Shown here piece by piece: positions 12,820-63,147 of a DNA stretch of 64,000 nt. Location: positions 3,968,001 through 4,032,000 of the forward strand of contig NW_024704771.1 of the NCBI RefSeq assembly GCF_018977255.1, read 5' to 3'. Below the pieces are notes generated by a model. That model did not search any database and was not told the DNA's origin. It saw nothing but the letters and a program-made list of their open reading frames with translations. The DNA comes from Callorhinchus milii (taxonomy: Eukaryota). Made by a program: the position numbers and the translations under genes. Each line of letters starts with the position of its first letter. Within the stretch, counting starts at the first letter, position 1.

Positions 12820-14994
12820 CTGCTCGCTCCCACTGCTCAGTGGGCTATGGCCTGCTTCGCATCCCCCTGTCTCAACCGGCCCACCACAACGGGCCTTCAG
12901 CCAATCTGCCCCCACCCTCCGGAACTCGATCCCGCAGTCCCTCCGCCCCGTCTCCTCCCTTGCTTCCTTCAAGACCCATCTCAAGACCTTCCTCTTCGAC
13001 CATGCCTTCAGGCACACTCCTTCCTCCCCCACCCCTTCCCCCCCCTCCCCGCTCAGTCCTGAAGCACTGATCGTCCAGGGTCTTGGGACGTTCTCCCGAC
13101 GTGGGAATAATCCCTGCCCCCGAGTGACACTCACTCCAAGTCCTGCTGACAAGTCAGGCCGGGCTGACTGTCATCAGCAGTCTCCTTGACTAATGTGGAC
13201 CTGTCTGGATAAGGAACCTGCAACACACAACAGAAATGCAACGACAACAACAACAGTCCCTTCAGGTTGAAAAGTGGAGCAGTCTATTTTAACTGAAAGG
13301 CAAATTACAGACTTTCTGCGATGTAAGACCTGGATTCAGTCTGAGGAGGGCAATAAGCAGATGGAACTACTATTCTACAGTCATTTGCAATGTGACCAGG
13401 ATCTATGTGCGGATTGTGCTGTGGACAATACTGAACCCTTTGCTGCAATAGATAGAAATTCCAGCTGCTCATAGGTCTGGATCAAAGGCGGAGTAAACCC
13501 AACTCATGTGTGTCCGGGTGTGGGAGCCTCCTCTCTGCTCATCACCGGAGTGAAACTGGAGGAAAGATCTCCTGGATTGACGTTCTATCAGACACATTAC
13601 TTGGACCAAAGTTCACACGTTGGGTACAATCCAGACACAAACCAATAGAAATTCGCTGTGTTTCCAACTCCAGCCTTATTACAGGATCTCTATGGACCCG
13701 CAGAGCTTGGCGTTTTCTCCTGCAATCTCCCGCCTGCCCCCACCCCGTATTCCCTTAAACCACAAACAGCGAATGATGTGCAGGAAAAAGTGAGGAAAAA
13801 CCACGTCACTGTCAATGTGTTAGAACCGGCAGATTCTCAGAGGCTCCGAGTTTTTCCCGCCATAATTATACCCGGGACTGAAGAGAGGATAAAGTTTCTC
13901 AGTGAAAATGTGGGTGAAAGTGTGGAGATGAGACATGTTATCAGCGTTGTAAAATGACACTTGTCCCCCCTCATAGTCCAGGTAAACCCCGATCTTCCCG
14001 GGTCTCACTGTCAGGGACAGAAGGGTGGGGGGTGAGGTCAGAGCCCTACAGACCTCGCCCACCAGTCTCACAGCCCAGACCCCATTCTCTGGTGACCGTG
14101 TGGTTGATTGTTTCCTGTTGACAGACTCTGTGGCCGTTCCCACAGTCCACTCAGTCTTGTTGCCCACTTGCACCTCCCAGTAATGTCTCCCTGATGTGAA
14201 GCCCTCAGATCCCAGGACAACGGGATCTTCACTAAACCTCTTCGGGCTGTCAGGGAGCGGCTGCCATATGTCTCCACATCTCACACTGGTCAGGTCCTCA
14301 GACAGGATGAGCCGGGGATGGGCTGTGTCAGGATCCAGAGTCAGAGCGGCCGGAGCTGAGAGAGAGAGAAAAATAACACAAAGTGAGGGGGTCACGGAGC
14401 GGGGGGGGCTGCAGGAGCGAGGGCGGGCACGAGGGGCCGGTGTGTGAGCTGGTGACAGATCCACATTAGAGGGTTAGTTCGATGAATCCATGGTAACAAA
14501 GACAAAATGTGTGTCTGTCCATGTGGGTGTGTCTGCAATAACCGATTGACTTAGAGACATGACTTATACCCCTTCAGAAAGGTCTTGCAAGTGAGGGTGT
14601 TTTTCACGGATCTCCTATCGTTGCTGAGCTGTCTTTAATTTCAAATGCTTTAATTAATTAAATCACACGCTCGTCTAAAGATATACATCTGTACTAATTA
14701 TTCGGCAACCAAGTAGCAACAAGTTTAGACACCTTTCTAGAGTGCCATGGGCATATTTTTTTTTCGGGGGGAATCTCCTATCATGTAAAGGATAATAATA
14801 CAATATAATGTGTAATACTACTGAAATCTACATCCCATATTGGATCCTTCGGTTGCAAGCGAAGCAACCGACAGCTAGTACAGCTGGTACAGGATAAAAA
14901 GACTGATTAAAAAGACACCAGCAGAGGGTGATGGTGACTGTGACTGGAGTTGGAGAAAATGCTCACACAGCACCACCTACTCATGGTAACGCAG

Positions 14995-15310
14995 TAATAA
15001 TAATAATAATCCTTGCATTTGATATAGCGCTTTTCACGTCGGGAGGACGTCCCAAAGCGCTTCACAGAACACACTGTAAAGTGAATTGACTGTACATTTG
15101 TGGGGGAACGCGGCAGCCAATGGCGCACAGCAATGTCCCACAAACAGTCATGGATTGAAAATGACCAATTTATTATTGTTTTGGGTTTTTTGGAGGGATT
15201 ATTATTAGGCTCTGTGTGGGGTAAGGAAACTTGCCCAAGGTTTGGCCCTCTGCCTGGAATTGAACTCAGGTCTCTCGCTTGCTCTAACCACTGAGCTACA
15301 GGACTCCACA
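14995..15310 (-). mobile_element. tRNA-Ala SINE, near full length
   Basis: Reverse complement of the 36593 and 47877 copies. Confidence 0.85.
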
Positions 15311-15599
15311 CCAGCAGTACAACAACAACAGCCAAATTACATGTGAATAGCGCCTTTCACGACGGGAGGACGTACCGAGCTGCTGGAAAGTCAGTGTTTC
15401 GGGCCTGAGCTGGGGGGCGGGGGAGGGAGAAGGAGGGTGGTTAAAAAGTACAGTCGACGAGGAGGGTCTTGAAGCAGTCAAGGGAGGGGGCGAGACGGAG
15501 GGACTGCGGGATGGAGTTACAGAGGGTGGGGGCAGAGTGGCTGAAGGCCTGCTGAACGCTAACACTATCTTAGTCTCTCCCTTTCTAAAAAGTAATCTG

Positions 15600-15905
15600 C
15601 TTTACTGTTTTCGCCACCTGGGTGGATAACTTCACACTTCCCTACATTATACTTCATCTGCCACCTATTCGCCCACTCCCTCAGCCTATCTATATAATGT
15701 TACACTTTTTTAACGACATCCTCAGTGTTTTCTCTCCCTCCTAGTTTAGTGTCATCCGCGAATTTGGATATATTAAGTTTCATGTCCTCATCTAGATCGT
15801 TGATGAAGATTGTAAATAGTTGAGGCCCAAGCACTGATCCTTGTGGCACTCCACTAGTCACATCCCGCCAATCTGAGAAGGACCCGTTTATCCCTAATTT
15901 TTGCT
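15600..15905 (-). mobile_element. CR1 LINE RT fragment (L2 fragments flank it at about 15320-15550 and 15910-16270)
   Basis: The minus strand encodes [22 protein letters not shown]...KFADDTK. Confidence 0.8.
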
Positions 15906-18900
15906 TTCTTCAAGGAGTTTGCATAGTCAAGCCTGGATATCATGAATGCGTGGACGAGGGTCTTGGCAGCCTGCGGTGTGAGACAGCGGCAGAACTGGGC
16001 AATGTTGCGGAGGTGGGGCAATGCAGAGTGAGTCATGGCACGGATGTAGGATAGAAAGGATAATTGAGGGTCAAACATGAGGCCAAGGTTCCGGACTGGC
16101 TAAGTAAGGTGTAGTGTGCATCAATAAATGGTGATGCTGTCAGTGCCTGAGGTGTGGAGCCGCTGACCAGAGACAATATGAAGGGTCATGGTCTTCTTGA
16201 CGTTCAACTGAAGTTAGTTCTTACCCAGGACATGTTTCTATCAGGAAAGCAGTGGTCCTGAAATCAAGAGTAGCGGCAGAGAGGCACAACTGGGTGTCAA
16301 GAGTAAAGAGCTCTGGGCTGCGTCTCTGCAGTGACATTTCACAACCAACAATGTTTAATTTGGGATCCAGGTGAATGTGAGATTATTCTGAGAATAGGAG
16401 ACACGTACCTGGGCTGATGCTGTGTATCATGTCTCTCCAGGCCGTGTAATGTACAGGACCCTTGTATATCCCCACAGGCAGATCACCCTCAGATAATGAC
16501 AGTTTAAAATCTTCAGCACTGATCCTAAAATAAGAGACGTTCACATTATAAAGTGGAACTACATTGTGTTTGGTTTATGTATTCAATTCTGGGGTTAATT
16601 TGTGAAGAACATTGCATACCTTCTCTTCCGAGCAGTTTCCCCCTAATGAAATAAAACACAGACAGATCTGAGCTCACACTGAGACTCGACATTGTAAACT
16701 CAGATACACAGAATTCCACAGCAGCAAAGTCTCTATCAGATTATACCAAATAATCAATAAAATCACTGGGCTGTTTAACAGTCAGACTTTGATTTTCTGC
16801 TCCAGACTCTAATTTTTACTGAACTATAATCTCTTTACCTGCAGAAAGGTGAGCGCGTCTTTTTCCGTCTGTTTCTGTAACACTGAGAGCTTTTGCTGAA
16901 CAGAAGTTAAATGGTCCTGAATCTCTCGCAGATTTTTCTCCATTCGGGTAAAACCTCCTCCTCTCGCTGTCTGAGCTCTCGGATCACACGCTGCTCTCTG
17001 TCAGTGAGGCTCTGGTGCATTTTAGCAAACTCAGCCGTGATGTGGTTCTCCAGACTGTCCGCCTGTTGCTGCAAAATGCGGCGTCAGACATCACACGGCG
17101 CACAGTAAAGAGAGACACACGACTGAGAGCCCAGACATCAGCCCCGACACAACTTACCTTCGCTTGTGAAATCTTTTCTTTCTGTTTCCCTTCAGCTTCC
17201 AGAGCCGCGGCCTTCCTCTGTGTGAGAGAAGCTAAGGAGGGTTTCACTTTATCCTGGAATTAAATAGAAAATGAGAAAAATCTTGATTAACCGAACAGAG
17301 AATTAGATCCGACTGAGCCCGATTGACAGTCTGGTGCCTTTTACCTTAAAGATCTGAGCCGCCTCCTGTATGGGGAGGAAGCTGTGGTGTCTGTGTTCTC
17401 GGGCGTCTCTGCAAACCAGGCAGATCAGTTTCTTGTCTGTTTCACAGTACAGCTTCAGTTCCTGCTGATGCTCCTCACAGTAAAGTCTTCTTTCTGTCTC
17501 GTCTGTGCTCATCTGTCGAGCTATCGCTGCCATGCTCGCCAGGGCCCAGTTGCCACTCAGTCTACTCTTGGCAAAGACTGTTCTGCATTCGGGACAGGCT
17601 TTGCTCTCCTTCTTTTCCCAGCTCCCTGAGATGCAGGAGCGGCAGAAGTTGTGGCCGCACTCCAGGGTAACCGGGTCAGTAAAGAGATCCAGACACACCG
17701 AACAATTTAAGTCATCGGTCAGATTCTCTGTTATTGGAAGCTGTGGTCCCCAGGAAGCCATGGTCACCTCGCAGCCCCCCCGGGTTACACACCTTTCAGT
17801 CTCAGGGTTTCTCAGCTGTGCGTGTGTGTGTGCGTGTGTCCTGCCCTGGACACCACTCCTTCACCGCGATCACTTTCACCTTTGGAACCATCGTGGTGAA
17901 GGTAGTTGGAAACACCACAGAGATTGAGGAAACGGAGCAAAGTTTATTCTAAAAACAACCCTGAAGTGCTGAGGAGGCAGAGTGAGGATTAGATAAGAAA
18001 CCTGGAAAATATTGACAATGATCTGCGCGTTTGATGTTGCGTTAGGATATCTCCTAAGCGCCTCACGGGAGTTTACTGCGCATTCTGAGACGTTAAACTG
18101 AGGTCCAGTGCCCAGGTGGACATTCAGAGAAAGATGGGCGTTCAGGCCAGCAATGCAAAATGCAATCGATCATTCACTTCAAGGTTCTTTGCGGGACATT
18201 GCTATGTGTCAATTGCCTCTGTGTCCAATACATACACAGTCTCTGCACTTCACAGTAAAATCCCGTCAAGTGCATTGAGATATCCTCCTGACACGAAAGG
18301 TGCCATTTTAAATTATTACTAGTTTCGCGCCGATAAGATTTTGTATTTTTATGTAAACTGGACCGAGTTTTAACATCTCATCTGAAGGATGGCACCTCTT
18401 GACAATCCAAGCTCCCCCCCACCCCCCACCCCCGGCACTGTGCAGGATTGTCAGCCCAGACTGTGAGCTCAAATCCCTGATGTGATCTCAGACTGTAAAC
18501 CACCTCCTCACAAAACCAAACCTGGGAGTGGTTTGCACCTGGAAATATGGCCTCAAGACATGGGGCTCAGAATTGTGGGCATCAGCCCCACTGCGCAGGA
18601 GCTGTTCCTCTCCCTAAATGCATAACCAGGAGGTGAAAATCTCAAAATCTCTTGCTTCTCATTTCTCTGGATCTAGCGAACCGTGTCACTGTTAACTGCT
18701 CCGAGACACTGCCCTACGTGAAGGGCACTATATACATACAAGTTGTTGTGCGGTTGTCTCTGCAACTGGCAAGTTGATTATAACAGGCATCAAATGAAGG
18801 AACCTTATAATAATAATAATAATAATCCGTGCATTTGATATCACGCATTTCACATTTTCAAGACATCTCAAAGCGCTTTACAGAGTATATTGTAAAGTGT

Positions 18901-20886: not shown

Positions 20887-23800
20887 TTACAACTGGCAGA
20901 TTGTCAGAGGTTCCGAGTTTTTCCCGCCATCATTAAACCAGGGACTGAAGAGAGGATAAAGTTTCTCAGTGAAAGTGTCAGTGAAAGTGTGGAGACGAGA
21001 CATGTTGTCAGCGTTGTAAAATGACACCTGTCCCCCCTCATAGTCCAGGTACACTCCGAGCTTCCCGGGTCTCACTGTCAGGGGCAGGCGGGTGGGAGGT
21101 GAGGTCAGAGCCTTATAATCCCCATCCCACAGCCATACCCCCCAGACCCCACCCTCTGTTGACCAAGTGATCTCTCCTTTCCTGTTGACAGACTCTCTGG
21201 CCACTCCCACAATCCACGCAGTCTTGTTGCCCACCTGCACCTCCCAGTAATGTCTCCCTGATGTGAAGCCCTCAGATGCTAGGATGGTGGGATGGTAACT
21301 AAACCTCTTTGGGGTGTCAGGGAGCGGCTGGCATTTGTCTCCGTGTCTTACACTGGTCAGGTCTTCAGACAGGATGAGCTGAGGATGGGCTGTGGCTGGA
21401 TCCAGAGTCAGAGCGGCCGGAGCTGAGAGAGAGAGAAAAATAATACAAAGTGGGTGAAAGGGGGTCATGAAGCAGGGGGTTCTCTACTGGCTCCGAGACG
21501 CCTTCCAGCATGGTACTACAAGAGTAAAGAGCCCTGGGCTGTGTCCCTGCAGTGACATTTCATGACCAAAAATGTTTAGTTTGTTAGGATCCAGGTGACT
21601 GTCAGACTATTCACACAACTTCATTCTGAGAATGGGAGCCATGTACCTGGGCTGATGCTGTGTCTCATGTCTCTCCAGGCTGTGTACTGTAGAGGCCCTT
21701 TGTATATCCCCATAGGGAGATCACCTTCAGATAATGACAGCAAAAAATTATCCTCACTGACCCTGAAATAAAGACGTTCACATTATAAAGTGACACTACA
21801 CATTGTGTTTGGTTTGTGTAGTAAATTCTGGGGATATTTTGTGAAGAACATTTCATACCTTCTCTTCCGAGCAGCTTCCTCCTAATGAAATAAAACACAG
21901 ACAGATCTGAGCTCACACTGAGACACCACATTGTAAATGATAATAATTCTTGCATTTTATATAGCGTCTTATCATGTCTCCAAGATATCTCAAAGCACTT
22001 TACTGTAGTAAAGTGTGGTGACTATTATTTTGTGGACGAAACATGCACAGCACTATCCCACAAATAGTCACGGATTGATTGACCAATTTATAATCTTTTT
22101 AAAGGGAATATATCTTTTTAAAGAGATTCGATCCGCGAATCGACTTACTGCTTGGTAAACTTGCCCAACATTTCGTTCTGCCGGGAATCCAACCCAGGTC
22201 TCTCGCTTGTGAGGCGTAGGCTCTAACCACTATGCTACAACCACTAGGTCTCCAATACAAGTCAGATACAGAGACTATCGCAGCAGAATCATCATTAGAA
22301 TATAGTCTAAACAACAATGTCTGTGTGTTTGTTTGTCTGTGGTGTCTGTTTACTTCATTGGTAAGGTCTCGCAGCTGACAGTGTCATGGGCATATTGTTG
22401 TGGGCGGATCTCCTATCGTTGATGAGCTATATTAAAAAAATGCTTTAATTAAAATATGAGGTATCCATTGTATTCAACAACTAAGTAAACACAGAGGAAA
22501 GCATACACTGTTCAGATAGACACATCTATATTCTGTAACAAATATATGTCAGTTTCTGGTTGTCCTCCCATGTGGGAGATAGATAAAGTGAGAAAGAGAG
22601 AGACTGAGATAGTGAGAGTCACACACAGAGAGAGAGAGAGACAGAGAGAATATATAAAGTGTAGTGAATGTGTACTTTATGGTAGAGACTGAGAGAGACA
22701 GAGAGAAAGACTGGAGAGGGGGAGAGAGAGAGACAGAGAGAAAGACAGACAGAAAGAATAAGAAAGACTTTGAGAGAGAGTCAGAGACTGTAAGAGAAAA
22801 TATATTAAAGGAGTCCTTCCACAAGGAGTATAAAGACAAAATGTGTGCCTATCTCTCCATATTGGATCAAGCGAACCAGCAACGGGTACAGCTCGTAATC
22901 AATAAAATCACGGGACTGCTTAACAGTCAGACTTTGACTTTCTGCTCCAGACTGTGTGTAACTTTTACGGAACTAAATTATAATTTCATCTCTTTACCTG
23001 CAGAAAGGAGAGAGTGTCTTTTTCCATCTGTTTCTGTAACTCTGACAGTTTTTGCTCAACAGAAGCTAATTTGCCCCGAATCTCTTGCAGATTTTTCTCC
23101 ATTCGATGCAAAACCTCCTCCTCTCGCTGTCTGAGCTCTCGGATTACACGCTGCTCTCTGTCAGTGAGGCTCTGGTGCATTTTAGCAAACTCAGCCATGA
23201 CGTGGTTCTCCAGACTGTCCGCCTGTTCCTGCAAAATGAATTGTCAACATCACACTGCGCACAGTAAAGAGAGAAACACGACTGAGAGCCCAGACATCAG
23301 CCCCGACACAACTTACCTTCACTTGTGAAATCTTTTCTTTCTGTTTCCCTTCAGCTTCGAGAGCCGCGGCCTTCCTCTGTGTGAGAGAAGCTAAGGAGGA
23401 GTTCACTTTATCCTGGAATTAAATAGAAACTGTGAGAAAAAATCTTGTTTTAACGGAGGATTCGATCGTACTTATCACAATTGACAGTCTGGTGCCTTTC
23501 ACCTTATAGATCTGAACAGCCTCCGCTACGGGGATGAAGCTGTGGTGTCTGTGTTCTCGGGCGTCTCTGCAAACCACACACATCAGTTTCTTGTCTGTTT
23601 CACAGAACAGCTTCAGTTCCTCCTGATGCTCCTCACAGCGAGGTTTTCTTTCTGCCTTCACCGGGGCTATGTTGAGCCGTCGAGCTTTCTCCGCCAGCCT
23701 CGCCAGGGCCCAGTTGCCCCTCATGCTACTGTTGGCAAAGACGGTTCTGCACTCGGGACAGGCTTTGCTCTCCTTCGTTTCCCAGCTCTGTGAGATACAG

Positions 23801-23907
23801 CAGCGGCAGAAGTTGTGGCCGCAATCCAGGGTGACCGGGTCGGTAAAGAGATCCAGGCAAACCGGACAAACTAAGTCCTCGCTCAGACTGTGCTGTCTGG
23901 AAGCCAT
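20887..23907 (-). CDS. G4: TRIM RING-B-box-CC-PRY/SPRY
   Basis: Exons 23907-23503, 23412-23317, 23228-22998, 21881-21859, 21762-21647, 21422-20887. Intact RING ([17 protein letters not shown]), B-box2 (CEEH..C..D..C..C..H..H) and B30.2. Confidence 0.92.

Positions 23908-24421: not shown

Positions 24422-24452
<31 letters not shown>
24107..24452 (+). mobile_element. tRNA-Ala SINE, GC-shifted copy just upstream of G4
   Basis: Colinear with the other copies but carries many A/T->G/C changes. Confidence 0.85.
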
Positions 24453-24453
<1 letters not shown>

Positions 24454-24479
24454 AGACGCGTCGGGACGAACCTCTGCAA

Positions 24480-26343: not shown

Positions 26344-29300
26344 TTATAACCGGCAGATTCTCAGTTGCGCCGAGTTTTTCCCATCGTAATCATTACAGGG
26401 ACCAAAGAGAGGATAAAGTTTCTCAGTGAATATTTGGGTGAAAGTGTGGAGATGAGACATGTTGTCAGCGTTGTAAAATGACACCTGTCCCCCCTCATAG
26501 TCCAGGTACACCCCGATCTTCCCGGGTCTCACTGTCAGGGGCAGGCGGGTGGGAGGTGAGGTCAGAGCTTCATAGACCCGGCCCCACAGCCACACACCCC
26601 AGACCCCACCCTCTGTTGACCACGTGATTGGTTGTTTCCTGTTGACAGACTCTCTGGTCACTCCCACAGTCCACGCAGTCTTGTTGCCCACCTGCACTTC
26701 CCAGTAATGTCTCCCTGATGTGAAGCCCTCAGATCCCAGGACAATGAGAGATATAGTAAACCTCTTTGGGGTGTCAGGGACCGGCTGCCATTCGTCTCCA
26801 TCTCTCACACTGGTCAGGTCCTCAGACACGATGAGCGAGGGATGGGCTGTGTCAGGATCCAGAGTCAGGGCGGCCGGAGCTGAGAGAGAGAGAGAGAAAA
26901 ATAACATAAAGTGTAGTGAGACACTTGTCACCTCCCACCTGGATTACTCAAACACTCTCCATGCCGGTTTCCCCAGCGCCACTGTTCAAAAATCCCGATC
27001 ATTCAGAACTTTGCCCTCCACCTGGACCACACTCCGAACCCCCTTCTCACCATTTCTGGCCAGGCTCCACTGGCACCCTATCATCGAGTAGATCATCTTC
27101 AAGATCCTCACGCTCATGTTCAAATCCTTTCACTCCCTAATTCCTCCCTACCTCTCCGATCCCCTCACTCCCCAAACCACCACCCAGCGCCTCCTCTCGA
27201 CTGGCACTGGCCCTACTGCTCATCCCTTCCGCCATTGAAGGTCTACGCCTCAAACCTCTGGTAAACTCTCCCCCGATCTCTGCACCTTGCTCCCTCTTTT
27301 TCCCTTTTTTAAGTCCTGCTTTAAAACCTTCCTCTTCGACCACGCTAATGGTCCAACACCCCAGCTCAGAGTCAGGCTCCGCCACTGTTAAGCGCTCTGA
27401 GACTCTAACTTGCATGGAAGTCACTACGTAAGTGCAAGTTGTTGTAAAAAGCACGGATTGTGTACCACTGCTAGGCTGCCAGCAAAGGGCACCAGTGACT
27501 GGAGTCGCTGTTGGTGAACATGGTACTGTAAGAGTAAAGTAAGAGTAAAGAACCCTGGGGTGACATTTCCTTTCTAACAATGTTTAATTTGTTAGGATCC
27601 AGATGAATGTGAGACTATTCACGTACCTTCCGTCTGAGAATAGGAGACATTTACCTGGGCTGATAATGTCCAGCACCTCTCTCCAGGCTGTGTACTGTAC
27701 AAGTCCTTTGCACATCCCCACAGGCAGATCCCCCTCAGATAAAGACAGTTTAAAATCCTCATCACTGATCCTGAAATAAGAGACGCTCACATTATAAAGT
27801 GAAACTACACATTGTGTTTCATTTGTGAATTAAATTCTGGGGATATTTTGTGAAGATCATTTCGTACCTTCTCTTCCGAACAGCTTCCTCCTAATGAAAT
27901 AAAACACAGACAGATCTGAGCTCACACTGAGACGTTACATTGTAAATTCAGAATACACAGAATAGAATTCTACAGCAGTAAGGATTACTATTATTATTAT
28001 GTAACACCGTTCCCACCACGGACATCTCCCCAAAGCGCAGAGTGAGTTCTGCTTCCAGACGCGCACTCACACTCAATAACTCCAATAACTTTATATTTAT
28101 ATTGATATAAATGTAACAAAACATCGATATCATTAAAGATTAAATTAAACACAGCTACAAATCAAAACAGTTATAAATGTTAATATCAACAGTAACGGAA
28201 GCGAATATAAATATAAATAACTGACAAGAACTTTAATCCCAGGATAACCACGGCTGAAGTGTCCCTGGCTGTTGGCTTTGCGGGGACACTGCAGGCCTTG
28301 GGAGTGACTGATGTGGGTTTACTTCTATTCTGAGTGGCAGCAGCAGAGTCACTATCAGATTATACCAAATAATCAATAAAATCACTGCGCTGTTTAACAG
28401 TCAGACTTTGACTTTCTTCTCCAGACTGTGTGTAACTTTCACTGAACTAAATTGTAATTTCATCTTTACCTGCAGAAAAGTGAGAGCGTCTTTTTCCATC
28501 TGATTCTGTAACTCTGAGAGCTTTTTCTGAACAGAAGCTAAATTGTCCTGAATCTGTCGCAGATTTTTCTTCATTCGTTGCAATATCTCCTCCTCTCGCT
28601 TTCTGAGCTCTCGGATTACACGCTGCTCCCTGTCGGTGAGGCTCTGGTGCATTTTAGCAAACTCGGCCGTGACATTGTTCGCCAGACTGCTTGCCTGTTT
28701 CTGTAAAATAAGGCGTCAGCCATCACACTACACTGCGCACAGTAAAGAGAGACACACGACTGAGAGCCCAGACATCAGCCCCGACACAACTCACCTTAAC
28801 TTGTGAAATCTTTTCTTTCTGTTTAACTTCAGCTTCTAGAGCAGTGGCCTTCCTCTGTGTGAGAGAGTCTAAGGAGGGTTTCACTTTATCCTGGAATTAA
28901 TAAAAACAATATTAATTCTTGCATTTGATATAGTGCCTAATCACATCTTTAAGACGTCTCACAGTGCTTCACAGAATATACCGTTAAAGTGAGTTGACTA
29001 TATTTTGTGGGAGAAAAGCGGCAGCCGAATGCACGCAGTGTCCCACAAACATTCGTGGATTGAGTGAACATTTTAAAAATTATTTTGAAGGAATTATTTC
29101 CCCAGAAAAGCGATCTACCAATCGCTTACAACTGAGTTCCTACTTACTGCTACGTAAACATAGGAGAGTGGAGTAAGAAATCTTGCCCAACGTTTCCTCC
29201 TGCCGGGACTTGAATCCAGATCGCCTTACTTGCGACTTGAGTGGTCTTAACCACTAAACTACAGGACTCCACATTAAATTAAGTCGAATTAAATAGAAAC

Positions 29301-36526: not shown

Positions 36527-36592
36527 GTTTATTTCTTTATTTTGAAGGAATTATCACCCCTAGAAAAGCGATCCACCTATCATCTAATAACC

Positions 36593-49253: not shown

Positions 49254-49672
49254 CACATTGACAGTGATGTGGTTTTACCTCGCTTTCCGTGTGATTCACT
49301 GACTGTTGTTTAAGGGAATACAGTGGGGTGGGGGGGGATGAGGTGGGGGGGGTGAATTTCGGGAGAAGATCGCAAGCTCTGCCATGATTATGAGTCCAGA
49401 AGAGTATGAGAAAGCAGAAAGTGAACTGACTGTATGTTTTGCGGGTGAAACACGGCAGCCAATTGCATATACAGCATCCCACACAGTTGTGGATAAAGTG
49501 ATCAAATTTTTTTTGGAAGGAATTATTACCCCCTCGGAACAGCCACCTGCCAATCTGTAGCTCGTGTCTCAGTGAAATACCTCGGGGACCAGCTCTCTGA
49601 TCTATAGACTCTGAGCGTCAAGTTACTGTCAGTTTGTGTCTGGATCGTACCCAGTGTGTAAACTTTGCTCAC

Positions 49673-49678
49673 AATAAA
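49673..49678 (+). terminator. Probable poly(A) signal AATAAA of G8 in a conserved 3' module (homologs: G9 56772, G4 20303-20298, G5 26079-26074, G7 38349-38344)
   Basis: Same position within the paralogous module gtgtaaactttgctcacAATAAAgtgtctgatacaac, 250-600 bp past each stop. Confidence 0.6.
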
Positions 49679-49789
49679 GTGTCTGATACAACTTCAATCC
49701 AGGAGATCTTTCCTCCGGTCCCCCACACCCGGACCCACACGAGCTGGGCTTACTCCGCCTTTGATCCAGATTAAAGTCGGCTCAAAACA

Positions 49790-49816
49790 CAAAATACTGC
49801 AGATGCTGGAAATCTG

Positions 49817-49847
<31 letters not shown>

Positions 49848-51190
49848 CCTTGCATTTGATAGAGCGCTTTTCACGTCGGGAGGACGTCCCAAAGCGCTTC
49901 ACAGAACAAGAACAAGAACAGAAGTCGCTGGGAACACTCAGCGGGTCAGGCAGCATCTGCGGAGAAAGGAAAGTGAGTCAACATTTCGGGTCCGCGACCC
50001 TTCGTCAAAACTGGGGGCATGTTGGGAGGGAGAGGCCCTTAAGGGCTAACTAACAGAGAGGGGGGAGGCAGAGCAAGGAAGACAAAGGAGAAAATGGGGT
50101 AGAAGGCAGGAGATGATGGGTTAAAGAAGTGCTGATAATGCAGAATGGAGGGGGAAACTGCCATAAAATAGGCAGAGCAGAGAGAGAAAAGGTGTGCAGA
50201 TAAGTGAGGTGCTGCTCCTCGAGCTCGCGCTGTGGCTCATTGGAACAGCGCAGGAAGGAGACCGTGGATGGAGAGGTCAGAGCGCGAGTGGGAGGGAGAG
50301 TGGCAAGAACCCGGAAGCTCAGGGCTGTGCTCACGGACAGAAGGGAGGTGATCGGCAAATACGTCGCCCAATCCGCGTTTGGTCTCCCCAGTGTAGAGGA
50401 GATCACATCATGAGCAGCGAATGCTGTAAACTACATTGGTGGGAGTACATGTAAATCACTGTCTCATTTGAACTCTTGGTTCGGGCCCCTGGACAATAGT
50501 AATGGGGGGAGGAGGTGAAAGGCACGAGGTATTGCGTGGGAAGGTGCCGGGGGAGGAGGATAACTGTTGGTGGTGATGGAGGAATGAACCAGGGAGTCAC
50601 GGAGGGAATGGTGCCTTCGGAATGAGAGGGAAGGGGAGGGAAAGATATGCTTAGTGGTTGGATTAAGCTAGAGGTGCCGGAAATGGCGATGAATTATTGT
50701 TGGGATGTTGAGGCCGGTGGGATGGAAAGTGAGGACCAGGGAGGCCCTATCGCGGTTCTGGGAAGATGGGGAAGGAGTGAGGGCAGAGTTGCGGGAAATA
50801 GGGCGGACATGATCAAGAGCCCTGCCTACCACATGGATGGGAATCCTCGGTTGAGGAAAGAGGAAGACATTTCGGCTGCTCTGGTGTGAAAGGTGGGATC
50901 GTCAGAGCAGATGCGGAGGAGGCGGAGGACCTGGAAGAAAGGGAATGGAGTCCTTACAGGTGGCGGGGTGGGAGGAGGTGTAATCCAGGTAACTGAGGGA
51001 GTTGGTGGGCTTGTAAAAGGTATTGGTTGATAATCTATGCCACAAGATGGAAATGCTGAAGTCAAGGAAGGGAAAAACTGGGGATGGACCATGTGAAGGT
51101 TATGGATGGTTGGAAGGTGGAAGCGAAATTGGTGAATTTTTCCAGGTCACTGCGAGAGCAGGAAGTAGCCCCAACACAGTCGTCGATGTA
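49790..51190 (-). mobile_element. Penelope-like retroelement fragment (copy A)
   Basis: FQVLRLLRICSDDPTFHTRAAEMSSSFLNRGFP and GIY-YIG-like LYTGETKRGLGDVFADH on the minus strand; a SINE tail is inserted at 49818-49908. Confidence 0.75.
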
Positions 51191-51879
51191 TAAACGTCAG
51201 CAGTAACCTCCCCAATGCACACTTGGCTCATTCCCTCCTTGGGCCCTTCTCGAATCTCAAAGCTTATTTACTTGTGTGCCTCTCACCCACCCCCACCCCC
51301 TCCCCTCCCACCCAAACCTGCTGGGCTGGACAATCCTCATCCCCTCTCTCCGCCCCATTATCTGCAGCTAAACCTTTAGCGCCGTCTTGTGAACTATCTC
51401 TCCCTAATACCCTCAGGCTCCCTCATCCCCTATCTGTTCCTCAGCGACCCGCTCATTCCCTTTACTTGACAGGCACCGACCGGGCTCCTTCACGTCCCCG
51501 TACTGTTCAAGATCATGTGGCACTGTTCGAAAAGAGAAAGGAGTTTCTCTCCTATTGCCTTAGCCAAGACCCAAATAGAATTGCTCATTCATTTCATTAC
51601 TGTTTGTGGGGCGTGAGGCGTTTCACCTACAAAATATAGTACCACTCACTACACCTTATAGTGTATCCTGTGAAGCGCCTTGAGACGTCTCAACGATGTG
51701 ATAAGGCACTATATATATATCAAATGTAAAGGTTATTATTATGTTATTCTGCGCAATTGTGCTCCAAGTTCACTCTCAAAACAGTCACTACAATTCACAG
51801 TAAATCCTGTGAAGTTTTTTTTGGGATGTCCTCCTGACGTGAAACTAAATGCAAAGATTATTGTTATTAGCAACTATTT

Positions 51880-52610
51880 TTCTCCAAGTATCTCACGCTC
51901 TTTCGCTCTAACTTGCTTCCTTCCTCTCAACCTATAGCTTACAATAGGTTTAAACACCTCAACCTCCCTGGGCTCTCCCTCAGACTCACCAAACCAGTGC
52001 GCAACCTCGGCATCCGGTTCGACCAACTGTCCTTCTTCCCCCACAACCGGTCCCTGACCAGGACTGTGCTCTTCCACCTCCGCCACATTGCCCATCTCCG
52101 ACCATACCTTACCCCAAATGCACCCAATGCCCTCGTGCATGCACTTGTCATCTGCTTGGAGCACTCCTCACTGGTCTCCCCAGCTCCACCATTCACAAGA
52201 TCCGGCTCATTCAAAACTCTGCCGTCCGCATACTGACCCAGAACAAACTCAGTGCCCAAATCTCACCCGTACTGGCCCAGGCTCCGCTGGCTGCCCATCA
52301 CCGAACGGATCGACTTCAAGAGCCTCACACTTGTGTTCAAATCCATTCACTCCCTGGCACCTCCCTACATCTCCGACCTCCTCACTCCCCACTCCCACCG
52401 CCTGGCGCCTCCGCTCGACTGGCACCGGCCTCCTGCTCATCCCTCGCATCCTCTCGTCCCACCATCGGAGGTTGAGCTTTCAGCCACTACATCCCAGAAC
52501 TCTGGGACACTTTTCCTCAATCCCTCTGCCTTGCCCCCTCTTTCACGTCCCGCCTGAAAACATTCCTTTTGACCTGTACCCTGCGTGCAAGTTGTTGTTG
52601 TTGTTGTTGT
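51880..52610 (+). mobile_element. Degenerate L2 fragment (duplicate at about 58670-59395)
   Basis: PVRNLGIRFDQ, LFHLRHIAHLR, LRWLPITERIDFK motifs. Confidence 0.8.
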
Positions 52611-53543
52611 ACATATCTCTTACCACAAGCCCAAAACTGCAGACAGTAAAAACATGAACGCTTACCTTTCTGACCAGCAGAAATAATAATAATCATTATC
52701 CTTGTATTGTATATGACACCCTATCAAGTCTTTCGAGACATCTCAAAGCACTGCACAGAATATGCTGCAATAATAATAATCCTTGCACTTGATAGAGCGC
52801 TTTTCGCGTCTTCTCGACGTCTCAAAGCGCTTCACAGAATATACCGTAAAGTGAGTTGACTGTATATTTGTGGGTGTAAAGTGAATTGACTGTGTATTTT
52901 GTGAAACCAGACTATGTGCTAAGTTGCAAGGCTGTTAGAATTGTTTCCCAGGCTCAGAGAATTCAGTCACTTGGCACACACACTCAATGGTACAGTATTT
53001 TGCAGTTCCTCTGTCCAACGTCTGCCTCAGAGAGACCTAATGCACATAAGTGGGACTTGCGGATATTTGGCTAGATGGAATTTCTTCCGCATGGATAAAG
53101 CTTATCATTACAAATACACGTTAGGAGCACCGCAGACTCCGATCGCATTGTGTACCTCAGATGACAGAGGTTCATCTGCTTTTTTCCTTTCTCTCGATAT
53201 ATCCGGCTCTGACAAAGCCCTCGAGTACATCACAGAGAGTCTGTAATGTCACCTTTTTAACGAAAGTAAAATACACTGTTCAACTTTTCCTATTGTGGGT
53301 TGCTGCCTCTCAAATTCAGAGGAAGTGTGTGTGTGTGGGTGTGGGTGTTGGGGGAGGGGTTAGTGGGCGATGGTGGGGGTGAAATGTACCAAGAAGATAA
53401 AATATTCTCTCTTCAGCCTGTGCCGAATATTCTCCAGATTTAGATGAGCAGGGTGTGGTCTCCACCAGAGATTTTGCCCTCCAAATACACAGAAAAGATT
53501 TCATCGGAAAGCTAAGGCAGGTTGAATCAGGAAGTGCTCAGAA

Positions 53544-55781
53544 ATGTCTTCAAGAGGCCAGAAGCAGAAGTGGACGGAGGAGTTAAACTGTCCCATCTGT
53601 TTGGAGATCTTTACCGAGCCAGTTACCCTGAAGTGTGGCCACAACTTCTGCCGCTTCTGTATCACGCATAGCTGGAGCGAGCAGCTGAAAGGAACCTGTC
53701 CAGAATGTCGAGAGGTGAATTCAGGAAATCAGCTGAAACCAAATCGAACGCTAGTAAATCTGTCAAATGAAGCTCGGGAACTGAAATCACCGCAGAACAA
53801 AGAGATGCGTGACTGTGATAAACATTCGGAAGAACTGAAGCTGTTCTGTGAAACTGATAAGAAATTGATCTGCATCATGTGTCTTATTGATGCCGATGGA
53901 CAGAGCCACAAATCCCACGACTTAATGCTGATAGAGAAAGCGGCTGAGATCTACAAGGTAACAAGGAGCGGACTTTATAATGTGACTACTTCTCTCTTGT
54001 TGTTGCAGTGAGGCGTTTTAAAAAAAGATTTTGTTTTCTTTTGTTTCATCGATATTCTGGTTGCAGGACAAACTAAAATCGTCCTTTGATCCGGTTATCA
54101 AAAGAAACGAGGCTGTTCTGCTCACTGAATCGGAGCAAAAAGAGAAGATTTCAGCGCTGAAAGTAAGTTGTGACAATTATCAGTTGCGTTTCCCTTATTT
54201 ACCGGGTGATGTCTGGGCTCTGTCGTGTTCCTCTTTCTGTAAGTGCCCGTGGTGATGTCTGATACCTTGTTCTGCAGGAGCAGGTGAGCAGGCTGGCGAA
54301 GCATGTTACGGCTGAGTTTGGTAAGATGCACCAGAGCCTCTATGACAGAGAGCAGCGTGTAATCCGAGAGCTCAGACAGCGAGAGCAGGAGATTTTGCAA
54401 CGAATGGAGAAAAATCTGGGAGAGATTCGGGGCAGTTTAGTTTCCCTTCAACAAAAATTCTCAGAGTTAAAGAAACAGATGGAAAAGGACGCATTCACCT
54501 TTCTGCGGGTAAAGAAGTTAACATTGCTCTAAGTTTCTGCAAGCAGACGCTTTAGTTCAGTAAACTACTCACAGTCTGCAGCAGAAAATCAAAGTCTGAC
54601 TGTTAAATAGCTCAGTAAATACATTAACTAGTATAACCAGACCTTTGTAAGAAGATCTCACTTTATGTTCTGCCTATAACTCAGAACAGCACTTTGTAGT
54701 TGCTCTGTATCTGAACCTTCTGGCTTTGGAGACAACTGGCTTTCTGGCTTTGAAAAAGCTTTCTGGCATTGAGTGACTAATATTCTTGTAATAGTTAAAC
54801 TGTGCGCTGTAGAATTCTATTCTCGGTATCTAAGTTTGCAAGTTTGTGTCTCAGTCTGAGCTCAGATCTGTCTGTGTTTTATTTCAATTAGGATGAAAAT
54901 ACTCGGAAGAGAAGGTATGAAATGTTCATGACCAAATATCCCCAGAAATTTAATACACAAACCAAACGCAATGGGTAGTTTGACTTCATAATGTGAACGT
55001 CTCTTATTTCAGGGTCAGTGAGGAGTATGTTAAGCTGTCATTATCTGAGGGTGATCTGCCTGTGGGGATATACACAGGACCTGTACAGTACGCAGCCTGG
55101 AGAGACATGAGACACATCATTAGCCCAGGTAAATATCTCCCATTCTCAGACTGAAGGTGTATGAAGAGTCTTAGGATACTAACAGATTAACAGTAACGAT
55201 CCTCGCATTTAATATTGTGCGTTATCACATCTTCACGGCGTCTGAAAGCTCTTCACCGCATATACCGGAAACTGAATTGACTGTAGACTTTGTGAAAGAG
55301 ATATGACAGAGATATGACTGCCAATCATGGCAGTCGATTGTGCGCAGCCCTGTCCCACAAACAGTCATTGATTAAGTGACCTGATTCTTCCATTTATTTA
55401 AAATAAAATCTGACTCGATTATTATCTGCACCAAAAACTATCCGCCAATTGCCTTACGACCAGAATGCGAGCTACTGGTAAACAGAGGCAAGCAGAGGCG
55501 TGTATTGTAAGGAAACCTGCCTGAGGTTACACCTGCCCAGGAATCGAAACTGGAACCTCGCTTTGCGAGGCGAGTGCTCTAACCACGACTCTACAGGACT
55601 GCAGTGTTGTTAATGAACAGCTCAGCGCTCTTTACACTCGCAGTACCGGGTTATGGCAGTTGTCGCTGTGTGAACGTTTTCACCAACAGCGAGACGCCAG
55701 TCACACTGTCCCCAGCGCCCGCCTTCGCTCCTGCAGACCCCCCCCCACCGCTCCGTGACCCCCTCACTCCACTTTGTGTTA

Positions 55782-55816
<35 letters not shown>

Positions 55817-56351
55817 TCCGGCCGCTCTGACTCTGGATCCTGACACAGCCCATCCCGAGCTCATCCTGTCTGAGGACCGGACCAGTGTGAGACTCGGAGG
55901 CAAACTGCAGCAGCTCCTCGACACCCCGAAGAGGTTTAGTTACCATCCAGTTGTCCTGGGGTCTGAGGGCTTCACATCAGGGAGACATTACTGGGAGGTG
56001 CAGGTGGGCAACAAGACTGCGTGGAGTGTGGGAGTGACCAGAGAGTCTGTCAACAGGAAACAATCAATCACTTGGTCACCAGAGGGTGGGGTCTGGGGGG
56101 TGTGGCTGATGGACGGGGACTATGTGGCTCTGACCTCCCCTCCCACCCCCCTGCCCCTGACAGTGGGACCCGGGAAAATCGGGGTTTACCTGGACTATGA
56201 GGGGGGACAGGTGTCATTTTACAACGCTGACAACATGTCTCATCTCCACACTTCCACCCAAACTTTCACTGAGAAACTTTATCCTTACCTGTGTCCCTGT
56301 GTTAATGACGACGGGAAAAACTCGGAGCCGCTGAGAATGTGCCAGTTATAA
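53544..56351 (+). CDS. G9: TRIM RING-B-box-CC-PRY/SPRY (chimeric last exon)
   Basis: Exons 53544-53957, 54067-54162, 54278-54508, 54892-54914, 55013-55128, 55816-56351. Confidence 0.9.
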
Positions 56352-60331: not shown

Positions 60332-63147
60332 ATGTCTTCAAGAGGCCAGAAGCAGAAGTGGACGGAGGAGTTAAACTGTCCCATCTGTTTGGAGATCTTT
60401 ACCGAGCCAGTTACCCTGAAGTGTGGCCACAACTTCTGCCGCTTCTGTATCACGCATAGCTGGAGCGAGCAGCTGAAAGGAACCTGTCCAGAATGTCGAG
60501 AGGTGAATTCAGGAAATCAGCTGAAACCAAATCGAACGCTAGTAAATCTGTCAAATGAAGCTCGGGAACTGAAATCACCGCAGAACAAAGAGATGCGTGA
60601 CTGTGATAAACATTCGGAAGAACTGAAGCTGTTCTGTGAAACTGATAAGAAATTGATCTGCATCATGTGTCTTATTGATGCCGATGGACAGAGCCACAAA
60701 TCCCACGACTTAATGCTGATAGAGAAAGCGGCTGAGATCTACAAGGTAACAAGGAGCGGACTTTATAATGTGACTACTTCTCTCTTGTTGTTGCAGTGAG
60801 GCGTTTTAAAAAAAGATTTTGTTTTCTTTTGTTTCATCGATATTCTGGTTGCAGGACAAACTAAAATCGTCCTTTGATCCGGTTATCAAAAGAAACGAGG
60901 CTGTTCTGCTCACTGAATCGGAGCAAAAAGAGAAGATTTCAGCGCTGAAAGTAAGTTGTGACAATTATCAGTTGCGTTTCCCTTATTTACCGGGTGATGT
61001 CTGGGCTCTGTCGTGTTCCTCTTTCTGTAAGTGCCCGTGGTGATGTCTGATACCTTGTTCTGCAGGAGCAGGTGAGCAGGCTGGCGAAGCATGTTACGGC
61101 TGAGTTTGGTAAGATGCACCAGAGCCTCTATGACAGAGAGCAGCGTGTAATCCGAGAGCTCAGACAGCGAGAGCAGGAGATTTTGCAACGAATGGAGAAA
61201 AATCTGGGAGAGATTCGGGGCAGTTTAGTTTCCCTTCAACAAAAATTCTCAGAGTTAAAGAAACAGATGGAAAAGGACGCATTCACCTTTCTGCGGGTAA
61301 AGAAGTTAACATTGCTCTAAGTTTCTGCAAGCAGACGCTTTAGTTCAGTAAACTACTCACAGTCTGGAGCAGAAAATCAAAGTCTGACTGTTAAATAGCT
61401 CAGTAAATACATTAACTAGTATAACCAGACCTTTGTAAGAAGATCTCACTTTATGTTCTGCCTATAACTCAGAACAGCACTTTGTAGTTGCTCTGTATCT
61501 GAACCTTCTGGCTTTGGAGACAACTGGCTTTCTGGCTTTGAAAAAGCTTTCTGGCATTGAGTGACTAATATTCTTGTAATAGTTAAACTGTGCGCTGTAG
61601 AATTCTATTCTCGGTATCTAAGTTTGCAAGTTTGTGTCTCAGTCTGAGCTCAGATCTGTCTGTGTTTTATTTCAATTAGGATGAAAATACTCGGAAGAGA
61701 AGGTATGAAATGTTCATGACCAAATATCCCCAGAAATTTAATACACAAACCAAACGCAATGGGTAGTTTGACTTCATAATGTGAACGTCTCTTATTTCAG
61801 GGTCAGTGAGGAGTATGTTAAGCTGTCATTATCTGAGGGTGATCTGCCTGTGGGGATATACACAGGACCTGTACAGTACGCAGCCTGGAGAGACATGAGA
61901 CACATCATTAGCCCAGGTAAATATCTCCCATTCTCAGACTGAAGGTGTATGAAGAGTCTTAGGATACTAACAGATTAACAGTAACGATCCTCGCATTTAA
62001 TATTGTGCGTTATCACATCTTCACGGCGTCTGAAAGCTCTTCACCGCATATACCGGAAACTGAATTGACTGTAGACTTTGTGAAAGAGATATGACAGAGA
62101 TATGACTGCCAATCATGGCAGTCGATTGTGCGCAGCCCTGGCCCACAAACAGTCATTGATTAAGTGACCTGATTCTTCCATTTATTTAAAATAAAATCTG
62201 ACTCGATTATTATCTGCACCAAAAACTATCCGCCAATTGCCTTACGACCAGAATGCGAGCTACTGGTAAACAGAGGCAAGCAGAGGCGTGTATTGTAAGG
62301 AAACCTGCCTGAGGTTACACCCTGCCCAGGAATCGAAACTGGAACCTCGCTTTGCGAGGCGAGTGCTCTAACCACGACTCTACAGGACTGCAGTGTTGTT
62401 AATGAACAGCTCAGCGCTCTTTACACTCGCAGTACCGGGTTATGGCAGTTGTCGCTGTGTGAACGTTTTCACCAACAGCGAGACGCCAGTCACACTGTCC
62501 CAGCGCCCGCCTTCGCTCCTGCAGACCCCCCCCCCACCGCTCCGTGACCCCCTCACTCCACTTTGTGTTATTTTTCTTTCTCTCTCTCTCTCTCTCTCAC
62601 AGTTCCGGCCGCTCTGACTCTGGATCCTGACACAGCCCATCCCGAGCTCATCCTGTCTGAGGACCGGACCAGTGTGAGACTCGGAGGCAAACTGCAGCAG
62701 CTCCTCGACACCCCGAAGAGGTTTAGTTACCATCCAGTTGTCCTGGGGTCTGAGGGCTTCACATCAGGGAGACATTACTGGGAGGTGCAGGTGGGCAACA
62801 AGACTGAGTGGAGCGTGGGAGTGGTGAGGGAGTCTGTCAACAGGAAAGAATCAATTACATTGGCACCAGAGGGCGGAATCTGGGGTGTGTGGCTGCATAA
62901 TGGGGCCTATTGGGCTCTGACCTCCCCTCCCACCCGCCTGCCCCTGACAGTGAGACCCGGGAAGGTCGGGGTGTACCTGGACTATGAGGGGGGACAGGTG
63001 TCATTTTACAACGCTGACAACATATCCCATCTCCACACTTTCACCCACACTTTCGCTGAGACAGTTTATCCTCTCTTCTACACCGGTTTGAATAACAACA
63101 AAAAGAACTCGGAGCCACTGAGAATCTGCCGGTCATTAACACATTAA
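60332..63147 (+). CDS. G10: TRIM RING-B-box-CC-PRY/SPRY, near-identical to G9 up to mid exon 6
   Basis: Exons 60332-60745, 60855-60950, 61066-61296, 61680-61702, 61801-61916, 62603-63147. Exon 1-3 translations are identical to G9. Confidence 0.92.

Follow-up and report, generated by a model that had tools for sequence, protein, structure and literature searches.

Mosaic B30.2 exons in a tandem TRIM gene cluster of Callorhinchus milii

How do neighbouring TRIM genes come to share short pieces of their recognition domain in patchwork fashion? The question is raised by a stretch of 64,000 nucleotides from the elephant shark Callorhinchus milii (the window). An initial annotation had proposed that recurrent segmental exchange shuffles loop cassettes between homogenised frameworks, with defective copies as possible donors by analogy to chicken immunoglobulin loci. 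We consider it probable, at about 0.85, that the B30.2 exons are mutual mosaics produced by ordinary germline unequal crossing-over and gene conversion between paralogues, with diversifying selection likely acting on the ligand pocket. A new programmed diversification system is not supported by the evidence from the cluster.

The gene cluster and its assembly

The window contains 10 TRIM genes (RING/B-box/coiled-coil/B30.2), and a further 9 downstream to the contig end bring the total to 19; the cluster is a tandem array of class IV-type TRIM genes (Table 1). Genome-wide there are at least 150 scored B30.2 matches, about half of them on one 4.1-Mb contig, and 16 of the roughly 130 outside matches were aligned. 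Pfam PRY and SPRY matched in cluster proteins, and zf-C3HC4_4 and zf-B_box exceeded their cut-offs in G4 and G9, giving an N-terminal RING and B-box; G6 has no exon 1. Exons 2-3, between B-box and B30.2, look heptad-like by eye. Family knowledge suggests that the products are probably cytosolic receptors and E3 ligases with an antiviral role.

Table 1. Positions of genes and other features in the window
Feature	Position	Strand	Description
G1	441..2394	+	divergent TRIM, exons 3-6 in window; tblastn and splice sites
G2	4896..10134	+	divergent TRIM; degenerate-looking B-box region
Isolated exon-2-like relic	12723..12816	-	76% like G9 exon 2; no B30.2 sequence
G3	13820..17761	-	TRIM with six exons, exon 1 of class A
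G4	20887..23907	-	intact TRIM, 468 aa, exon 1 of class A; exon 6 at 20887-21422
66-bp stretch, G4 exon 6	20968..21033	-	identical to G6 33856-33921; [10 protein letters not shown] patch
G5	26344..29771	-	intact TRIM, 467 aa, exon 1 of class A
G6	33775..36528	-	5'-truncated, lacking exon 1 and first 30 nt of exon 2; exons 3-6 open
G7	38597..42166	-	intact TRIM, 468 aa; exon-level mosaic
G8	44783..49253	+	intact TRIM, 471 aa; exon 1 of class B ahead of exons 2-3 that resemble class A; 26-nt exon 4
~7-kb tandem duplication, copy 1	49089..56019	+	G8 exon-6 3' part to G9 exon-6 5' part
G9	53544..56351	+	intact chimeric TRIM, 471 aa
G9 exon-6 middle, 167 bp	56020..56186	+	matches neither parent
~7-kb tandem duplication, copy 2	56187-62806	+	second copy of the duplicated unit
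G10	60332..63147	+	intact TRIM, 474 aa, exon 1 of class C

Exon 6 of G3-G6 and G8-G10 lies within 13820-63147 in every case (coordinates checked). G1, whose exon 1 sits about 2.3-2.7 kb 5' of the window start, has an exon 6 only 70-74% like the other cluster copies. G7 is 78-92% like the cluster in exons 2-5 and just 75-78% in exon 6, where it groups with G1 and G2. These three genes were kept out of the tests for their divergent exon 6, as were the broken G12 and G15, which entered the tract counts only. A SINE-like repeat stands directly upstream of the truncated G6. G3 has a 1-bp deletion in exon 3, near 16947, leading to a stop at codon 225; it may be genuine or an assembly error. Record P0123 omits G3 exon 3, the exon that bears this deletion.

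Could the mosaics be products of the assembly, with merged reads of near-identical paralogues or haplotypes creating chimeras and false frameshifts? Two 25-base gaps lie in the downstream part of the cluster, G14 is frameshifted in the assembly although a 487-aa G14-like record exists, and the older gene model P0123 fuses the G4 RING to the G3 B30.2. However, the window is free of any N, the duplicated units described below differ by scattered sites and an indel, and other records from the species give the same exon-6 proteins (G3 99.4%, G4 100%, G9 99.4%, and 100% over the first 94 residues of G16). One of them, P0033 (Callorhinchus milii nuclear factor 7 ovary-like), has a B30.2 domain identical to that of G4. 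We give this explanation almost no weight.

Exchange among the B30.2 exons

The exons of these genes differ widely in divergence. Three classes of exon 1, with 62-74% similarity between them, stand against an exon 6 that is 82-96% alike, G7 apart. Between classes A and B the silent divergence (dS) is 0.79 in exon 1, 0.14 in exons 2-3 and 0.10 in the exon-6 framework; the corresponding values for A and C are 1.07, 0.57 and 0.14. In a 12-gene comparison, exon 1 was incompatible with every one of the seven other trees (log-likelihood loss 247-543), and none of four exon-6 windows accepted a tree built from another of the four (p-AU <= 0.005), so that separate trees per exon and per exon-6 window, the check suggested in the initial annotation, are incongruent. 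The near-invariance at DNA level that it had seen in the exon-6 framework was also borne out: three framework motifs in 7 genes have mean identities of 96.8%, 98.9% and 97.0%, with 3/27, 2/51 and 5/54 sites variable. In most pairs this near-identity ends with the exon and short flanks. The 5' half of G5 exon 6 is about 97% like that of G8, which runs in the opposite orientation, and the alignment of the two genes extends no further than 9 bp into intron 5 on one side and 51 bp past exon 6 on the other. That the exon-1 classes predate the shark/chimaera split was not shown, as a single clade had a p-AU of 0.229 in a comparison whose trees covered cartilaginous fishes and a few further sequences.

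Tests within exon 6 gave a clear signal of recombination. PHI was significant for the 7 window genes (p=1e-4), likewise with 13 and 14 genes (1e-4), and for the window genes without G9 (p=9e-4); for the five left without G9 and G10 it fell to p=0.04 when every site was used and to p=0.20 when each codon contributed a single site. Under a clonal null with clustered hot spots, site rates being kept in place, 0/200 simulations reached the observed PHI value. GENECONV-type global p values were <0.001 for a 203-bp tract in G9/G10 and a 162-bp tract in G8/G9, 0.011 for G8/G16 and 0.027 for G5/G16. On the other side, only four of ten hand-picked triplets gave p<0.05. Together with the window trees, PHI and the clonal simulations uphold the claim of recurrent segmental exchange among homogenised exon-6 copies. 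A second G5 record points the same way: its sole difference is a three-residue block, whose Met is found elsewhere only in G9. The alternative records for G5, G13 and G14 exist as proteins only, however, and may represent paralogues or chimeras of the assembly. In four public runs, contigs from very many paralogues piled on G5 exon 6, too mixed for phasing; none carried the window's letter at 26580, a site where holes in coverage deprive this absence of weight.

The largest single event had escaped the first reading of the sequence. G9 is the 5' part of G10 joined to the 3' part of G8, within a tandem duplication of about 7 kb: it is G10-like up to 56019 and G8-like from 56187. The duplicated units differ by 22 substitutions over 50500-55999, 6 over 49089-50026 and an indel of about 310 bp. 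The 167 bp between the two parental parts have 16 differences from G8, and the best of 34 other sequences still has 14. Record P0112 has the same exon 6 as G9 (99.4% of amino acids).

It might be argued that conversion played no meaningful part, and that the patchwork is only mimicked, through fast gene duplication, unequal crossing-over on one or a few occasions, and a few hypervariable codons that changed convergently. Greedy removal of G9, G17 and G19 from 14 genes leaves PHI non-significant (p=0.13, by a method biased towards loss of signal). Most of the long-range signal comes from these three chimeras, so that long-range mosaicism is concentrated in a few recent events of this kind. Site conflict is already 0.48-0.50 at 3-20 bp, as recurrent mutation would produce, against 0.55-0.57 beyond 120 bp. 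Silent-site support is weak: the 7-8 informative strictly silent sites give conflict at p=0.01-0.035 under mild rate variation and 0.28 at alpha 0.2. However, the 11 genes that remain after the removal have a site conflict of 0.488, above the maximum of 0.399 in 60 clonal simulations. Multi-base patches that include a silent change recur in genes that are not sisters: G11/G13/G19 at nt 204-206 and G14/G17/G18/G19 at nt 480-495. The G5/G8 exchange, between opposite orientations and ending at the exon borders, is unlike a simple crossover, and the contrast in dS between exon 1 (0.8-1.07) and the exon-6 framework also argues against this explanation, which we regard as quite improbable.

The patches that first suggested the mosaic are themselves of uneven value. 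Each quoted peptide is confined to the genes named for it among the 16 aligned, but two of the four rest on 1-2 bases, a point in favour of convergence. The [10 protein letters not shown] patch of G4/G5/G8 has one shared non-majority base, its carriers disagreeing at 2 other bases, and RFSYHP (G4/G9/G10) has two, with a triplet p of 0.41. In exon 6, G3 has its nearest relative in G6 and vice versa (91.3%; sisters at 97% bootstrap), and exchange is therefore not needed for what they share. The stretch common to G4 and G6 has 4 shared derived bases and a non-significant triplet test (p=0.13).

Nor do loop cassettes appear to be the unit of exchange, as had been suggested. Identical tracts common to gene pairs have a median of 69 bp, painted exon-6 segments are mostly 50-300 bp and exchange tracts mostly 40-200 bp; the strongest exchanges, of 100-200 bp, span several loops. 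Import of cassettes from older sequences was rejected, four-fold silent divergence being 0.103 in patches (35/341) and 0.099 in the framework (130/1311). A G-quadruplex trigger was considered for a G-run motif at exon-6 nt 270-300, present in 7/19 cluster genes, of which G8 alone belongs to the window, and in 3/16 outside loci; it was dropped because the motif tracks Gly/Val/Trp codons and is missing from G9 and G10.

Defective copies and the predicted ligand pocket

A dedicated system, in which defective copies persist as templates and pass loop cassettes to functional genes, whether in the germline or in somatic cells, like chicken pseudo-V genes, would draw on several of these observations. 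The exchange is genuine by PHI and clonal simulations, a 66-bp tract is common to G6 and the intact G4, the exon-6 frames of the defective G3 and G6 are still open, and the middle of G9 has no exact donor in the assembly. The organisation of the cluster is against it. Many genes are intact, with full open frames after splicing in 6/8 of G3-G10, so there is no single acceptor. The defective copies are entire genes or truncated ones rather than a bank of domain-only segments: in 208 kb searched there were no exon-6-only copies, save 23-24 bp matches and one 43-bp match at 79%. Defective copies take part in 3/27 shared tracts compared with 54/120 pairs, or 8/27 compared with 65/120 if G14 is counted as defective too; these counts were compared directly, as a Fisher test would treat tracts as independent pairs. 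They supply 14% of painted bases (1052/7476), and the patches specific to G3 and G6 are missing from intact genes. The isolated relic, also put forward as a donor, cannot donate loops because it has no B30.2 sequence. Germline differences have no bias towards AID hot spots (WRC/GYW; G/C sites variable 14/37 versus 97/266, p=0.86). Neither the donor role of the defective copies nor the analogy with chicken immunoglobulin genes is supported here, and we hold such a system to be highly improbable.

The B30.2 model (pLDDT 94.7) has a TM score of 0.97 to the PRYSPRY domain of human TRIM21 (PDB 2IWG), at about 50% identity. Pocket residues of TRIM21 were taken from the parts consulted of PMC4670481 and PMC12647892 and mapped by alignment, not by coordinates: 13/13 equivalent positions vary among the shark genes, compared with 59/165 others (p=1e-5), and 0/177 circular shifts were as high. 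The variable sites do, as anticipated, cluster on one face, the ligand face. Because the boundaries of the exon-6 patches were themselves set from the data, using them for this purpose would be circular; the TRIM21-derived list alone is independent. Pocket pN is 2.8 times the exon-wide pS (95% CI 1.9-3.8), while pN/pS inside the pocket codons is about 1.0 (0.406/0.391, Nei-Gojobori), so the case for positive selection depends on the exon-wide silent rate. These sequence comparisons suggest that diversifying selection is likely to act on the predicted ligand pocket.

Our preferred reading, germline crossing-over and conversion, would then work as follows. Conversion, copying from tens up to a few hundred bases at a time, would homogenise the whole of exon 6 (silent divergence 0.10-0.14), even between genes with far older first exons (0.8-1.07) and opposite orientations. 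Pocket codons would gather amino-acid changes, and breakpoints in the near-identical framework would allow recombination to reassort these into new combinations. Broken copies would be by-products of gene birth and death.

A more far-reaching proposal seems unlikely on present evidence. It holds that the elephant shark B30.2 repertoire (at least 150 domains) is among the largest seen in vertebrates and is reshuffled today by allele-level microconversions of 10-40 bp, which move single pocket loops among TRIM genes and also exchange them with butyrophilin genes, so that intracellular receptor pockets vary from animal to animal in a way comparable to MHC class I.

Comparison with known systems

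A mosaic recognition domain has already been reported in reptile harbiTRIMs and in zebrafish btr and NLR-B30.2 genes. The cluster has three features of that pattern: breakpoints inside B30.2, homogenised B30.2 with divergent N-termini, and variation on the ligand face. In the sections cited, the squamate harbiTRIM locus has GARD/RDP4 breakpoints throughout PRY-SPRY, which its authors attribute to duplication coupled to gene conversion (PMC12262214). As in the shark cluster, its TRIM/PRY-SPRY genes stand in tandem near butyrophilins, have been gained and lost, and have breakpoints across PRY-SPRY (PMC12262214). It differs in lineage and locus, in its demonstrated antiviral activity and in copy number, which is far higher in the elephant shark (19 in the cluster, at least 150 B30.2 genome-wide).

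In zebrafish the btr, finTRIM and trim35 families of TRIM genes have also expanded, and their B30.2 loops are hypervariable and under positive selection, although these expansions are teleost; the passages cited report GARD breakpoints in B30.2, seven for btr and one for finTRIM, and no recombination in trim35 (PMC3137616, PMC2657112). For the zebrafish NLR-B30.2 genes, the cited account has selection making substitutions, which are then spread and recombined across groups by conversion in tracts that fall short of the full B30.2 exon (PMC4852459). The proposed mechanism is the same, with N-terminal parts staying distinct between groups, but these are about 400 genes for NACHT-LRR proteins rather than TRIMs (PMC4852459). 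Our results extend this 'conversion plus selection' mode of B30.2 evolution to a holocephalan, which suggests that it recurs across jawed vertebrates.

The resemblance to chicken immunoglobulin conversion is that segments are copied between homologous variable sequences (PMC10917233, PMC449846, PMC7986818). That process, as described in the portion cited, is somatic, AID-triggered and one-way, from pseudogenes to a single functional V (PMC10917233); the shark cluster showed none of these features where they could be tested. The variable shark positions align to pocket residues of TRIM21, which has the same fold. In the parts of the TRIM21 reports used here its Fc-binding pocket is fixed, whereas the equivalent positions differ among shark paralogues (PMC4670481, PMC12647892). 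D355 is kept in no shark paralogue, and Fc binding is therefore not implied. The cluster offers a natural series of near-identical frameworks with differing pocket residues, suited to tests of the role of pocket loops in target specificity, and the young chimera G9, standing beside both its parents, would be useful for such tests. A parallel to G9 itself is in the chicken BG genes, a tandem immune array in which, according to the cited text, unequal crossing-over or deletion has given rise to hybrid genes, though BG genes encode butyrophilin-like surface proteins and keep a single orientation throughout (PMC4046983).

Extent and makeup of the TRIM array

The TRIM-B30.2 array is a case of real germline mosaicism, with variation at the predicted ligand pocket. 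Six-frame motif and ORF scans found 10 PRY/SPRY exons in the window, and Pfam placed RING and B-box domains in the first exons and PRY and SPRY in the last. The model of gene G4 has six exons (405, 96, 231, 23, 116 and 536 nt) encoding 468 aa, and its B30.2 domain matches a record titled Callorhinchus milii nuclear factor 7, ovary-like at 100% identity. Nine more genes, G11-G19, continue downstream as far as the contig end; no further cluster genes were found in the 57 kb preceding G1. Of 423 candidate B30.2 matches in a genome-wide search, 150 were scored, and by hand count about 76 of those scored fall on this one contig of 4.1 Mb, where B30.2 sequences are thus very dense. The genes already carry automatic annotation. 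Literature searches largely confined to openly available main texts turned up no paper on the cluster; it may still be listed in the supplement of a genome paper.

Complete open frames are present in G4, G5, G7, G8, G9 and G10. In G3, 1 bp is deleted from exon 3; G6 is missing exon 1 as well as 30 nt of exon 2. Of the downstream genes, G15 is degenerate, G12 and G14 carry frameshifts (in exon 6 and in exons 2-3, respectively), and G18 ends two codons short. As a G14-like record of 487 aa is known, some frameshifts, possibly that of G3 among them, may be assembly errors. A young repeat of about 330 bp, SINE-like in our reading rather than by a database result, has at least seven copies, 86-99% alike and in both orientations, one of them at the 5' break of G6. 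A 46-bp-unit minisatellite occurs twice, 30 kb apart, with flanks 96-98% identical.

Coordinates of features in and around the window (window scale unless prefixed by the contig handle G000:C30)
Feature	Position
SINE-like repeat, about 330 bp	6661-6933
SINE-like repeat, about 330 bp	14995-15310
SINE-like repeat, about 330 bp	24108-24446
SINE-like repeat, about 330 bp	36589-36924
SINE-like repeat, about 330 bp	37443-37711
SINE-like repeat, about 330 bp	44295-44620
SINE-like repeat, about 330 bp	47873-48200
Minisatellite, 46-bp unit	1-433; 30358-31155
Minisatellite, 20-bp unit	31503-32264
Framework match, 23 bp	32263-32285
Relic	12723-12816
Exon 2 with shared residues	23317-23412; 45276-45371
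G7	38597-42166
227-codon frame	57246-57929 (-)
G16 (L037)	118865-119431
L006, B30.2 exon	G000:C30:3684656-3685177
L026, B30.2 copy	G000:C30:67941-68459

Exchange between and within exons

Exon 1 falls into class A (G3, G4, G5, G7, G11, G13, G17-19), class B (G8, G12, G14, G16) and class C (G9, G10). Across 15 genes, identity is 62-74% between classes in exon 1, 85-96% among class A and B genes in exons 2-3, and 82-96% in exon 6, G7 excepted at 75-78%. When classes are compared, silent sites diverge by 0.79-1.07 in exon 1 as against 0.10-0.14 in the exon-6 framework. In most gene pairs, among them G5 and G8, which lie in opposite orientations, alignment extends no further than about 10-200 bp beyond exon 6. 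The trees of separate exons, for which the initial annotation had suggested a test of incongruence, did conflict, exon 1 rejecting the tree of every other partition. G7 has cluster-type exons 1-5, yet its exon 6 clusters with G1/G2, either an old exon retained or a divergent exon acquired. Exon 2 encodes the same 32 residues in G4, G8, G18 and G19, despite the different exon-1 class and opposite orientation of G8 and G4.

Recombination is also seen within exon 6, the PRY/SPRY exon. PHI, computed with our own implementation, gave p=1e-4 for the seven window genes (G3-G6, G8-G10), for 14 genes, for 13 without G9 and for seven outside the window. It gave p=9e-4 for six window genes with G9 left out and p=0.04 for five without G9 and G10 (p=0.20 at one site per codon). 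In clonal simulations that kept each site at its own rate, no run attained the observed value (three gene sets at two scales, 200 runs apiece). With 12 genes, each of four exon-6 windows rejected the trees of the other three, and three of the four rejected the whole-exon tree. Some results weigh against a fine patchwork across the whole cluster: greedy removal of G9, G17 and G19 raised PHI to p=0.13, sites 3-20 bp apart already conflict at 0.48-0.50, and silent-site conflict is significant under mild rate variation only. Conflict among the 11 genes left after removal exceeds all 60 of 60 simulations, which favours such a patchwork, and this excess could come from short tracts or from convergence. 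We counted 27 identical tracts with at least three shared derived bases (median 69 bp; not mutually independent), and four of 10 triplets, picked by eye, reached p<0.05: G9, G17, G5 and G19.

All the shared patches first reported are indeed confined to the genes named. The G4/G5/G8 patch has one shared derived base, RFSYHP (G4, G9, G10) has two, and the patches common to G3 and G6 fit common descent; the G4/G6 patch is a tract identical over 66 bp with four derived bases.

The structure of G9 is that expected from unequal crossing-over of G10 with G8 within exon 6. Exon-6 nucleotides 3-205 are identical to G10 and 373-534 to G8, the upstream flank matches over 5.5 kb with 22 substitutions and the downstream flank over about 940 bp with six. 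The middle 167 bp has 16 differences from G8, against 0.4-0.6% in the flanks, and none of 34 other sequences is closer than 14 differences; so divergent a segment would need further exchange or a crossover of divergent alleles. The exon recurs in a second record. Near the inner duplication boundary is a 227-codon minus-strand frame that may be a Penelope-type retroelement fragment.

The protein records P0116 and P0119 hint at exchange still under way. They agree with G5 in 175 of 178 residues; the other three are consecutive (99-101), and one of them, Met99, is otherwise found only in G9 among 16 genes. If they represent an allele, the flanking residues imply a tract of about 7-40 bp. G13-like records have eight residue differences and G14-like records five, several common to paralogues. 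All of these exist as protein sequences only, and paralogy or assembly may account for them.

The B30.2 exon L006, some 285 kb before the start of the window, was compared along with records P0101/P0103; it is nearly identical to the exon of a record that is annotated as butyrophilin-like and has Ig domains. Its protein is 81-82% identical to that of G4 and has the WLWDGDYKA loop of G4, so that TRIM and butyrophilin genes may have exchanged B30.2 sequence. L026, which lies 3.9 Mb away and contains an internal stop, is a B30.2 copy similar to G5 in two distinct loops, those with the TIS and GRVY motifs, on a different framework.

Defective copies as putative donors

The initial annotation had proposed that defective copies donate loops, as in chicken Ig loci. 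The results speak against this. Counting G3, G6, G12 and G15 as defective, such copies entered 3 of the 27 tracts versus 54 of 120 pairs and supplied 14% of painted bases, and patches specific to G3/G6 were not found in intact genes. The relic resembles exon 2 only and, containing no B30.2 sequence, has no loops to donate. There was no exon-6-only template array in the 208 kb searched, and no AID-motif bias. A stretch of 23 bp identical to part of the exon-6 framework (HYWEVQV), either a remnant or chance, adjoins a minisatellite whose 20-bp unit is loosely similar.

Variable sites and the predicted ligand pocket

The AlphaFold model of the B30.2 domain has pLDDT 94.7 and TM 0.97 to TRIM21 PRYSPRY. 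The pocket list comprises 13 residues given in PMC4670481 and PMC12647892; with numbering anchored on D355A chain 8Y58 in alignments, the equivalents are positions 15, 44, 46, 71, 84-87, 97, 99, 160, 163 and 165. Variable sites gather there, as had been supposed for one face of the domain: by alignment mapping rather than coordinates, 13 of 13 pocket positions vary in seven genes, compared with 59 of the remaining 165 (p=1e-5). In the pocket, pN reaches 2.8 times exon-wide pS, with pN/pS about 1 inside the pocket codons by simple counting, and patches and framework are equally diverged at four-fold sites. Import of old cassettes is disfavoured; in the best reading, pocket codons would gather replacement changes that recombination then reassorts.

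The cluster joins a pattern already known from harbiTRIM, btr and NLR-B30.2 genes. Published work describes, for harbiTRIM, breakpoints all along PRY-SPRY in a tandem array of TRIM and butyrophilin genes, where the authors of the preprint invoke duplication coupled to gene conversion (PMC12262214), and for zebrafish btr B30.2, seven GARD breakpoints plus positive selection (PMC3137616, PMC2657112). The zebrafish NLR-B30.2 work puts forward the same short-tract mechanism as that proposed for the Callorhinchus milii cluster (PMC4852459).

The last variable loop of G16 is lengthened by an in-frame insertion of 11 residues, which is retained in record P0192.
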